Source: Dehalococcoidia bacterium
GTDB taxonomy: Bacteria; Chloroflexota; Dehalococcoidia; UBA6926
DNA: 64,000 nt
NCBI GenBank assembly: GCA_009841045.1
Contig: VXMO01000010.1
Span: 6,544 to 70,543, forward strand
Direction: 5' to 3'
Below the pieces are notes generated by a model. That model was not told the DNA's origin. It searched no databases and saw only the letters and a program-made list of their open reading frames with translations. This document shows positions 26,914 through 28,578 of the stretch, piece after piece (positions within the stretch are counted from its first letter, which is position 1; every line of letters starts with the position of its first letter). The translations under genes were made by a program, and so were the position numbers.

Positions 26914-26942
26914 TTGACATTATAGAACGCTTGTTTTATTAT
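26914..26942 (+). promoter_or_regulatory. Near-consensus sigma70 promoter: TTGACA, 17-nt spacer, TATTAT.
   Basis: AT-rich promoter in a GC-rich genome, 38 nt upstream of the Gp37/Gp68-family gene. Confidence 0.45.
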
Positions 26943-26979
26943 CCGTCCGCAGCGTAAATCGCTAGCCAAGGGGCGTGAA

Positions 26980-27723
26980 ATGGCATCGACTATTGAGTGG
27001 ACGGACGAGACGTGGAACCCCGTTACCGGCTGCTCACGTGTCTCCCCAGGCTGCGACAACTGCTATATGTTCGCGCTGTACCCGCGCCTTCACGCCATGG
27101 GCGTGCCGGGCTACGAGAAATCGCCGGACACGGTCACGTTGCTGCCTGAGCGACTGAACGCTCCGTTGACCTGGAAGGCTCCTCGTCGCGTCTTTGTGAA
27201 CAGCATGTCCGACCTGTTCCATCCCAAGGTGCCATTTGAGTTCATCTCACAAGTGTTTGACGTCATGCGGCAGGCGGATCAACACATTTTCCAGGTGCTG
27301 ACCAAGCGACCTGGCAAGGCGGCAGGATGGTGGGAGAAATGTGGCAAGCACGAGTTCAGCGAGTGGCCGTCCAATGTTTGGATCGGGACATCGGTTGAGA
27401 ATGACAAGTACGCGCCGCGCCTGACTGTGCTTGGCCGGATTCCCGCAGAGGTTCGGTTCGTGTCAGCCGAGCCACTATTGGGTCCGCTTGATCTCACGCC
27501 CTGGCTATACGACGGAACGCTCCAGTGGGTCATCGTGGGCGGCGAGAGTGGCCCTCGCGCCCGCCCGATGGAGGAGGAGTGGGCAGATTCCCTCAAAGAA
27601 CAGACCACGCATGCAAAGGTGAGCTTCTTCTTCAAGCAATGGGGCGGACGTAAGGGGAAGCGGAGCGGGGATAAGGCGTTATTGGATGGTCGATTGTGGC
27701 AGGAGATGCCGGTAGCAGTTTAG
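26980..27723 (+). CDS. Phage Gp37/Gp68 family protein (DUF5131) with the three-Cys motif.
   Basis: N-terminal [26 protein letters not shown] is the hallmark of this family (C-x6-C-x2-C). 247 aa. Confidence 0.75.
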   Translation: [247 protein letters not shown]

Positions 27724-27726
27724 ACC

Positions 27727-28578
27727 ATGACCCAACATCCCAGTTTCGGCGGCCCATGGACACAGGAAAAGCTGGACATCCTCAGGAGTTATTTGAACTC
27801 CTATACCACTGCGCTCAAGAACCAGCCCTTTAGTCTCATTTATATCGACGCTTTTGCCGGTTCAGGATGGTACCAAGCTAAGCAGCCTGAAGATCCAGGC
27901 AATTACGGCGAATTTGACGAGCTCCGAGCAGGATCGGCAACGATAGCTTTGGAGATTGACGACAGACCGTTTGACCACCTCATCTTCGTGGAAAAGGATG
28001 TGGAATTCATCGAGTCACTAAGTGGCCTGCAAGCCGAACATCCTAGTAGAAACATAGAGGTTATTAGGGGAGATGCGAATGAGGAGTTGCCCCTAATCTG
28101 CCAAGACATGCGGTCAAGTGAGCGAGCTGTAGTATTCCTAGACCCTTACGCGACAGAAGTTGACTGGGCAACAGTGGAGTCTGTTGCCAACACGAAGAAG
28201 ATTGATTGCTGGATTTTGTTTCCTCTCAGTGCCCTCACTCGGATGATGGACAACGATAGAAGACCGAATGAAGAACTTGCGGGCCATCTGGATCGAGTAT
28301 TCGGTGGGCGGCAATATTGGCAAGAACAACTCTATCGACCATCAATCCAGCAGTCCCTTTTCGCCGATGAAGAGATCGTAGCCAGGGAACCGCAGAATCG
28401 CATCGCTGCGCTTTACAAAGAACGGCTTGCCACTATCTTTCACGCAGTCGCACCTACTAGCCGACAACTGAGGAATTCTCAGAACTCACCAATGTTCGAG
28501 CTTATGTTTGCCGCATCGAACCCTGCAGGGTCACGGATCGCTATCGAAATAGCCAACCATATTCTAGAGCGCTGGTAG
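27727..28578 (+). CDS. TcmP-like (three-Cys-motif partner) protein with methyltransferase-like motifs. Markedly low GC.
   Basis: Starts 4 nt after the Gp37/Gp68 stop. IDAFAGSG resembles MTase motif I and VVFLDPYATE resembles the DPPY-like motif IV. GC about 50% against about 65% background. Confidence 0.55.
   Translation: MTQHPSFGGPWTQEKLDILRSYLNSYTTALKNQPFSLIYIDAFAGSGWYQAKQPEDPGNYGEFDELRAGSATIALEIDDRPFDHLIFVEKDVEFIESLSGLQAEHPSRNIEVIRGDANEELPLICQDMRSSERAVVFLDPYATEVDWATVESVANTKKIDCWILFPLSALTRMMDNDRRPNEELAGHLDRVFGGRQYWQEQLYRPSIQQSLFADEEIVAREPQNRIAALYKERLATIFHAVAPTSRQLRNSQNSPMFELMFAASNPAGSRIAIEIANHILERW

Follow-up and report, generated by a model that had tools for sequence, protein, structure and literature searches.

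Within a 64,000-nucleotide stretch of a metagenome-assembled genome of a Dehalococcoidia bacterium (contig VXMO01000010.1 of assembly GCA_009841045.1, positions 6,544 to 70,543), hereafter called the window, lies a short cassette of two genes. The first gene encodes a DUF5131 protein, of the phage Gp37/Gp68 family, and the second encodes a protein of the three-Cys-motif partner (TcmP) family. Here, we describe both proteins, their coupling in other genomes, and the replacement of TcmP alleles at a fixed chromosomal site, and we weigh a reading in which the pair may form a DNA-modifying enzyme that acts in the conflict between phages and their hosts. The features of the cassette, in window coordinates, are the following.

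26905..28587, + strand: the whole accessory cassette (promoter and two genes), 1.68 kb, between the stop codon of a 107-aa open reading frame (ORF) and that of a convergent glycosyltransferase gene (GT2)
26914..26942, + strand: sigma-70-type promoter TTGACA-17-TATTAT, an 11/12 match, upstream of both genes
26980..27723, + strand: DUF5131 (phage Gp37/Gp68 family) ORF, 247 aa
27031..27063, + strand: three-Cys motif C18/C25/C28 of DUF5131, the presumed [4Fe-4S] ligands
27538..27546, + strand: G187-G188-E189 within WVIVGGESG of DUF5131, invariant in a 63-homologue alignment
27727..28578, + strand: TcmP ORF, 283 aa
27844..27867, + strand: TcmP motif I, IDAFAGSG, a glycine loop for binding S-adenosylmethionine (SAM); D41, A44, G45 and G47 are invariant
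28135..28158, + strand: TcmP motif IV-like segment FLDPYATE (D139-P140-Y141); F137, L138, D139 and P140 are invariant

A first-pass annotation, made from the sequence alone, had named both families, a near-perfect promoter and a TcmP G+C content (GC) of about 50%, and all of these hold. The two genes are separated by 3 nt (TAG-ACC-ATG). Promoter matches of 11/12 occurred in only 2 of 1700 random 150-nt control windows, and in 9/9 syntenic genomes the promoter is kept, with a constant spacing of 64-69 nt to the ATG. Matches of at least 10/12 lie upstream of 22% of the pairs found elsewhere, compared with 0.6% of control windows. No intrinsic terminator was found downstream of TcmP, and an Rfam search of the window found no RNA element. 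The GC is 0.50 for TcmP, 0.59 for DUF5131 and 0.62-0.69 for the flanking genes, and the GC at third codon positions (GC3) is 0.52, 0.72 and 0.73-0.87, respectively.

The DUF5131 protein matches PF07505 over its full length (E 2.8e-90, 302.5 bits for a cut-off of 28.9), with residues 3-244 aligned to positions 2-243 of the 243 in the model. It also matches the PADLOC profile PDC-M41B (E 1.1e-91) and phrog_2045. The three-Cys motif, C18-x6-C25-x2-C28, is invariant in 63 homologues. The GGE motif may correspond to a SAM-contacting motif of radical SAM enzymes. TIGR04471, the radical SAM mobile pair protein A, gives a weak full-length match that is below threshold (44 bits, cut-off 355). The AlphaFold2 model of DUF5131 has a mean predicted local distance difference test score (pLDDT) of 83.5 and consists of repeated alternating β/α units. 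Foldseek aligned this model weakly to TIM-barrels that include the radical SAM enzymes LipA (lipoyl synthase), spore photoproduct lyase (SPL), NifB and TsrM. Sequence searches of the PDB gave nothing meaningful with the single protein and no match with the DUF5131 profile. RadicalSAM.org places DUF5131 in the radical SAM superfamily as subgroup Megacluster-5-2, which adjoins the spore photoproduct lyases (5-3) and the MJ0683-like proteins (5-1) (PMC9477430).

The TcmP protein matches TIGR04474 (E 8e-64, 216.1 bits for a cut-off of 53; residues 10-278 on positions 1-261 of 263) and PDC-M41A (E 3.5e-87); NCBI already annotates this exact protein as TcmP. Its AlphaFold2 model, built from 66 homologues, has a pLDDT of 85.5 and a predicted template modelling score of 0.83. 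A Foldseek comparison of the model with the PDB gave 203 matches at E<=1e-3, of which the top 50 consist almost entirely of methyltransferases. The top twelve correspond to RlmJ, the 23S rRNA m6A2030 methyltransferase, and its family (E 5e-8, TM-score 0.53), followed by other class-I SAM methyltransferases. Only generic methyltransferases were returned from the viral folds of BFVD. The model thus predicts a class-I SAM methyltransferase fold that is closest to RlmJ.

The motifs of TcmP agree with this predicted fold. The first-pass annotation had pointed to a methyltransferase-like motif I and a DPPY-like motif, and both were confirmed at their coordinates. In addition, E89, the acidic residue after β2, and D116-A-N118 are conserved in at least 90% of the homologues. 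The family profile, GSxxIALE...IEKD...DAN...LDP-YA, aligns onto the RsmD-like methylase 2fhp (E 2.7e-4), in which DP-YA is paired with LLDPPYAKQ with a one-residue gap. With hhalign, DAFAGSG of TcmP aligns to DTHAGAG of RlmJ, whose motif IV is IDPPYE. The match to Pfam Cons_hypoth95 is below threshold (22.1 versus 24 bits), the RlmJ family of Pfam gave no hit, and a PDB search with the TcmP sequence alone gave no meaningful match. TcmP is methyltransferase-like, and RlmJ/RsmD-like in fold, and lies outside both families.

The two genes are tightly coupled. The first-pass annotation had regarded a scattered distribution in related genomes as an argument against a functional pair; DUF5131 is adjacent to TcmP in 85/85 genome loci, in both gene orders, and both ORFs are intact in nearly all of these loci. 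Across the loci examined, the neighbour of TcmP is always either DUF5131 or a canonical radical SAM protein of family PF04055. Seventeen low-GC viral contigs had no DUF5131 within about 8 kb of TcmP. Two of them were examined (L176 and L183), and in both the gene after TcmP encodes a protein of about 255 aa with a match above the PF04055 threshold and a weak match to DUF5131. In a Nostoc plasmid, TcmP adjoins a divergently transcribed 323-aa protein that also passes PF04055. All three partners resemble radical SAM proteins of the Rv2578c/PA0069 type, and the Cys motif of the L176 partner is aligned with that of DUF5131 in a weak hhalign match (probability 36%). Because these other partners of TcmP pass PF04055, they link DUF5131 to the radical SAM enzymes. 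A rule that emerges from this analysis is that the partner of TcmP is always of radical SAM type and SPL lineage.

One natural fusion was found. It joins DUF1848 to TcmP in a 608-aa protein (P0367, locus L212), and a DUF5131 gene directly follows it. The DUF1848 part ends in CLHGCKYC, a canonical CX3CX2C Cys cluster. A relationship between DUF1848 and DUF5131 was rejected, as hhalign gave nothing significant beyond the Cys motif (probability 2.7%). Two 536-aa ORFs that seemed to be fusions, in L020 and L024, were also discarded; they are out-of-frame upstream extensions in which the DUF5131 and TcmP matches lie in different frames. Two TcmP paralogues share one radical SAM gene on the plasmids pSymA and pAt and in L183, where the second paralogue is 379 aa long. 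The long paralogue of pSymA has a C-terminal winged helix-turn-helix (wHTH) domain.

The partners of TcmP can be compared with SPL and with the radical SAM proteins MJ0683, Rv2578c and PA0069, the "DNA repair photolyase" group, which fall in the same radical SAM megacluster as DUF5131. Proteins like Rv2578c and PA0069 replace DUF5131 beside TcmP in some phages and in Nostoc. DUF5131 differs from the SPL/Rv2578c/PA0069 group in its CX6CX2C spacing, its shorter length and a score under the PF04055 threshold. The kinship with SPL could be read as DNA repair, with DUF5131 reversing a lesion directly, as SPL does, and TcmP recognizing the lesion. DUF5131 clusters beside SPL, SPL is among its weak fold matches, one phage homologue is annotated as a spore photoproduct lyase, and many carriers are phages of light-exposed hosts (cyanobacteria, Erythrobacter, haloarchaea). 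Such a role leaves the conserved SAM-methyltransferase motifs of TcmP unexplained, however, and for a repair factor neither the deep allelic replacement of the partner, described below, nor embedding in BREX, DISARM or restriction-modification (R-M) loci would be expected. We regard repair as very improbable.

The cassette is accessory. The order tilS, a small ORF of 107 aa, DUF5131, TcmP and then the convergent genes GT2-purH-purM-purF is kept in nine genomes. The pair had been described as inserted between tilS and the glycosyltransferase/pur genes; this is correct on the glycosyltransferase side, but on the other side the 107-aa ORF lies between tilS and the pair. Contig L094, from a close relative, has an empty site, with 42 nt between the stop codons of the small ORF and GT2 and without the pair. 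Its identity to the window is 95% for PurF, 92% for PurH, 89% for GT2 and 89% for the small ORF. The comparison with a genome lacking the insert, which had been proposed in the first-pass annotation, thus gives the cassette bounds as 26905..28587. In more distant genomes, GT2 and tilS are found near each other without the pair. No integrase or transposase was found in the cassette, and its sole flanking repeat is a 7-mer, probably due to chance. A recent insertion was rejected, since the pair occupies the same site in nine genomes whose flanks have a synonymous divergence (dS) of 0.35-2.9. The pair is still accessory because the close relative has an empty site.

Divergence at this site is concentrated in TcmP. 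In relatives whose flanking proteins are 93-97% identical to those of the window, DUF5131 is 85-93% and TcmP 57-76% identical. Nucleotide identity in sliding windows drops from about 90% to 55-65% near position 27,700 and rises again near 28,575, and these positions correspond to the two ends of the TcmP ORF. In two relatives, the stretch of low identity reaches into the 3' part of DUF5131. TcmP is saturated at synonymous sites (proportion of synonymous differences, pS, 0.72-0.90), while in the same comparisons dS is 0.35-0.63 for the flanks and 0.65-1.0 for DUF5131. Within the syntenic group, TcmP identities are 54-88% and form several allele classes, and the lowest are no higher than those to unrelated loci (55-61%). 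For comparison, DUF5131 has identities of at least 77% within the group and of at most 76% outside it. In 52/55 locus pairs, which include independent syntenic groups, TcmP has diverged further than the median flank gene, and the GC of TcmP is below that of DUF5131 in 82/83 loci.

The two genes also have incongruent trees. L027 and L020 share 93% identity in DUF5131 and 59% in TcmP, while L027 and L024 share 96% in TcmP (pairwise identities among L020, L024 and L027 are 93/91/89 for DUF5131 and 59/96/60 for TcmP). The nearest neighbours in the two trees agree for 31/76 loci. Relaxed constraint was rejected as the cause of the divergence, given the intact ORFs, the invariant catalytic motifs and a ratio of nonsynonymous to synonymous divergence (dN/dS) of 0.07, obtained from the one measurable pair. 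This pattern is the signature of old functional TcmP alleles, exchanged by recombination at a fixed site. The TcmP alleles are far older than the surrounding backbone, and the pattern is as expected for a recognition determinant under frequency-dependent selection. The foreign origin suggested in the first-pass annotation therefore applies mainly to TcmP.

The same data bear on two other explanations. The cassette might be an inert remnant of a prophage or another mobile element with no current function, as DUF5131 is phage-associated (phrog_2045; 180 phage records) and the GC of TcmP is atypical. This is hardly credible with ORFs that are intact in nearly all 85 loci, a dN/dS of about 0.07-0.12 and a conserved promoter, and the site has no other phage genes, integrase or repeats. 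A housekeeping role has more in its favour. In this explanation, an RlmJ/RsmD-like methyltransferase and a radical SAM enzyme, as in RlmN or MiaB, would modify rRNA or tRNA. Among solved folds, the closest belong to rRNA methyltransferases, the genes nearby on the chromosome have translation-related and housekeeping roles (tilS, tsaD, pur genes), and the synteny in nine genomes and the strong promoter are consistent with it. RlmJ and RsmD (16S rRNA m2G966) share the predicted fold of TcmP and have motif I, the acidic residue after β2, D-A-N and motif IV in the same order. However, these two enzymes act alone on rRNA and are conserved housekeeping proteins, whereas TcmP is hypervariable and has an obligate radical SAM partner. 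A housekeeping gene would also fit poorly with the empty site in a close relative, with the low GC of TcmP and a tree at odds with that of DUF5131, and with a patchy distribution that extends to phages, plasmids and defence islands (5126 of 1.84 billion cluster representatives). We consider housekeeping RNA modification quite unlikely.

The distribution of the pair was then considered across phyla and replicons. The TcmP family accounts for 5126 of 1.84 billion cluster representatives at E<=1e-3. In the Chloroflexota, most neighbours of the pair are housekeeping genes, which differ between lineages, while contexts in defence islands were found in other phyla. On the Agrobacterium plasmid pAt (L090) the pair adjoins Hachiman and a CHAT protein; there, a trio of short TcmP, long TcmP and DUF5131 in A. 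tumefaciens lies next to a Hachiman-like pair of a DUF1837 protein and a helicase. The TcmP locus of the Nostoc plasmid adjoins BREX. On pSymA of S. meliloti (L089, 4343..10004), the order is hna (PADLOC PDC-S28, a validated defence gene), a short TcmP that is listed as co-regulated with hna, and then a convergent long TcmP with the wHTH domain, together with DUF5131. In L005 the pair precedes an HKD-Snf2 helicase, near HsdR and PIN genes. Homology to Hna, which would have tied the pair to Hna in two phyla, was considered for the helicase that follows the pair in L005 and L012 and was rejected; this helicase is an HKD-Snf2/DrmD-like protein. In L212 (1..12525), the DUF1848-TcmP fusion and DUF5131 belong to an operon, all on one strand, that also encodes SNF2 and UvrD helicases, a YhcG-like nuclease and an MmeI-type methylase.

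DNA methylases accompany the pair in a few places. In L015 (8190..10834), DUF5131 and TcmP are separated by the insertion of a gene for a 306-aa N6/N4 DNA methylase (PF01555, E 6.5e-26). The same locus has a duplicated fragment of the 3' end of DUF5131 at 9812..9976, which may be the footprint of a cassette exchange. N6/N4 DNA methylases occur within 10 kb of the pair in only 7 of about 80 loci, and, apart from the one embedded in L015, an enrichment of DNA methylases near the pair was dismissed as anecdotal.

In phages, the pair or its PF04055 version adjoins SAM synthetase, DNA methylase and large terminase genes. In two viral contigs of IMG/VR (L176, 5140..11591, and L183, 4534..11783), the neighbours include a phage SAM synthetase, a large terminase and a 709-aa DNA methylase. 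Temperate Gordonia phages carry the pair between their integrase and immunity repressor genes. DUF5131 was found in 180 phage and 414 plasmid records, and TcmP that is detectable with the window query in 7 and 13, respectively. Full-length plasmid DUF5131 proteins are followed by long, divergent TcmP proteins, which are missed by tblastn with the window TcmP as query. DUF5131 can also occur alone within conjugative transfer regions. On a Burkholderia cenocepacia plasmid (L211, 3549..5023), a 344-aa stand-alone DUF5131 lies between an HNH endonuclease gene and traH, without TcmP, an arrangement that points to a TcmP-independent role during the entry of DNA.

The pair is already catalogued as PADLOC PDC-M41 and NCBIfam TcmP. 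The first-pass annotation had called it conserved but functionally uncharacterized, which holds. Both components of the window pair match PDC-M41 (E 1e-87 to 1e-91) and are adjacent on the same strand. Structurally, nothing sets the window pair apart from this candidate. The pair is not embedded in a known defence system here and sits among housekeeping genes. The related PADLOC candidate PDC-M30, a long TcmP paralogue with DUF5131, shares the DUF5131 partner and a homologous methyltransferase-like N-terminal part. It differs in that M30A has about 370-415 aa, with the C-terminal wHTH in the pSymA example, while the TcmP of the window is the short 283-aa form. In some replicons, both the long PDC-M30 form and the short form of TcmP occur with a single DUF5131. 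New here are the TcmP fold, the radical-SAM partner rule, the empty site that bounds the cassette and the allele replacement confined to TcmP.

The earlier proposal of a nucleic-acid modification or defence module is supported by the TcmP family match, the methyltransferase fold and the adjacency in all 85 loci. Going further, we propose that the two proteins are the subunits of a SAM-dependent enzyme that modifies DNA in the conflict between phages and hosts, and that TcmP is its swappable recognition subunit; we give this reading about an even chance. The product of this self-contained 1.68-kb cassette, in which two closely spaced genes follow a strong promoter of their own, would modify a nucleic acid, probably DNA. 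DUF5131 would be the conserved catalytic engine, of radical SAM type and SPL lineage. It would carry a [4Fe-4S] cluster on C18, C25 and C28 and generate a 5'-deoxyadenosyl radical by cleavage of SAM. TcmP, as the recognition or specificity subunit of the putative complex, would bind SAM, select the target base and flip it, and methylation of an exocyclic amine could be an extra activity. The alleles of TcmP, exchanged by recombination at the fixed site, would be under frequency-dependent selection from phages.

DNA is the probable target because of the wHTH domain of the long paralogue, the PF01555 methylase embedded in L015, the SAM synthetase (MetK), DNA methylase and terminase genes that neighbour the phage copies, and the embedding of PDC candidates in defence loci. 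A role in conflict is suggested because of the empty site, the divergence confined to the TcmP ORF, the saturated pS and the incongruent trees.

Several observations weigh against this reading. For DUF5131, the PF04055 Radical_SAM model gave no hit at E<=0.1, the Cys spacing is CX6CX2C and not CX3CX2C, and the Foldseek matches to radical SAM structures are weak (E >= 6e-3, TM-score of about 0.4). For TcmP, motif IV is DP-Y, with one proline fewer than DPPY, and the sequence likeness to RlmJ is marginal (hhalign probability 48%, over motif I only; shuffle z 2.9). RlmJ and RsmD, the fold relatives, are RNA enzymes and not DNA enzymes, and the TcmP of the window is acidic, with a pI of 4.85 that is unusual for a DNA binder. 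The saturated dS of TcmP may be inflated in part by its low GC3. The two-gene cassette contains no nuclease and no reader of a modification, and its neighbours here are housekeeping genes. DUF5131 can probably work alone, given its wider spread than that of the TcmP detectable with the window query. As for the catalogue, the PDC systems are 145 candidates nominated by their embedding in BREX, DISARM or Type I R-M loci, and the source calls them untested (bioRxiv 10.1101/2024.01.29.577857). Full-text literature searches found no functional study of DUF5131, TcmP, PF07505 or PDC-M41.

Alternatively, the pair could defend against phages on its own and without marking DNA. In that case, TcmP would be the sensor, of a phage protein or nucleic acid, and DUF5131 the effector, which might deplete SAM, make a viperin-like toxic or chain-terminating nucleotide, or damage phage DNA by radical chemistry. 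Prokaryotic viperins are likewise radical SAM enzymes in anti-phage defence. However, they act alone on nucleotides, no homology beyond the superfamily was detected, and none of the searches returned a viperin. The status of PADLOC candidate, the defence islands elsewhere and the hypervariable TcmP, with ancient alleles typical of arms-race sensors, are all consistent with such a system, as is the location between integrase and immunity repressor in the Gordonia phages, which is the usual place of defence genes expressed from prophages. On the other hand, TcmP retains the full set of SAM-binding and motif IV residues, which would be superfluous in a pure sensor, and a strong promoter would make a self-damaging effector costly. 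The phage copies beside terminase, DNA methylase and MetK genes suggest modification of the phage's own DNA. On this evidence, we judge a system without DNA marking unlikely.

For the proposed DNA-modifying enzyme, the closest parallel in evolutionary behaviour is hsdS of Type I R-M systems, in which a conserved catalytic partner is likewise combined with exchanged, divergent recognition alleles between homogeneous flanks. The likeness is an analogy in evolutionary behaviour only, with no relationship in sequence or fold. The cassette differs from hsdS loci in that it has no restriction subunit and in that the whole TcmP gene varies, not a target-recognition domain. We put forward tentatively, and with more doubt than belief, that TcmP-DUF5131 represents a new class of radical-SAM-dependent DNA-marking or DNA-damaging systems, with interchangeable hsdS-like TcmP alleles and an undescribed DNA modification, which serves bacterial immunity as well as counter-defence by phages and plasmids.

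The pair is spread across phyla, plasmids and phages and is listed as a defence candidate. Close relatives that share the same backbone and carry deeply different TcmP alleles, or no cassette, constitute a natural experiment, and the empty site together with the allele replacement makes the system directly testable. If the proposal is true, it would bring new chemistry to DNA modification and phage defence, and it would account for the hypervariability and the persistently higher AT content of TcmP. If the target is RNA, or if there is none, an entry in a defence-prediction database needs correcting.

Upstream of the cassette, the small ORF that separates it from tilS is the following.

26581..26904, + strand: 107-aa ORF, between tilS and the DUF5131-TcmP pair

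Its predicted product has an Arg/Gly-rich N-terminal half and a hydrophobic C-terminal helix, as in a small membrane protein, and it has no match in Pfam or NCBIfam. It is 52-99% conserved in all syntenic relatives and is also present in the empty-site contig; it is probably a real gene that lies outside the cassette. TilS of the window (25443..26564, + strand) has 373 aa. Its orthologues in L002 (5350..6837) and L003 (5435..6862) have 475-495 aa and an extra TilS_C domain, and the 3' end of the window tilS aligns poorly to these two loci.

Further upstream, about 2 kb from the cassette, a gene at 23760..24830 (+ strand) encodes a 356-aa protein with a NucS_C-like nuclease domain (Pfam E 2.9e-9) that matches the PADLOC candidate PDC-S11 (E 1e-37). 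Its GC is low, at 0.53. In relatives with flanks of 93-97% identity, the identity of this protein is 63-66%, and L002, L007 and L011 lack it. This gene is a second hypervariable defence candidate with presence/absence variation near the cassette.

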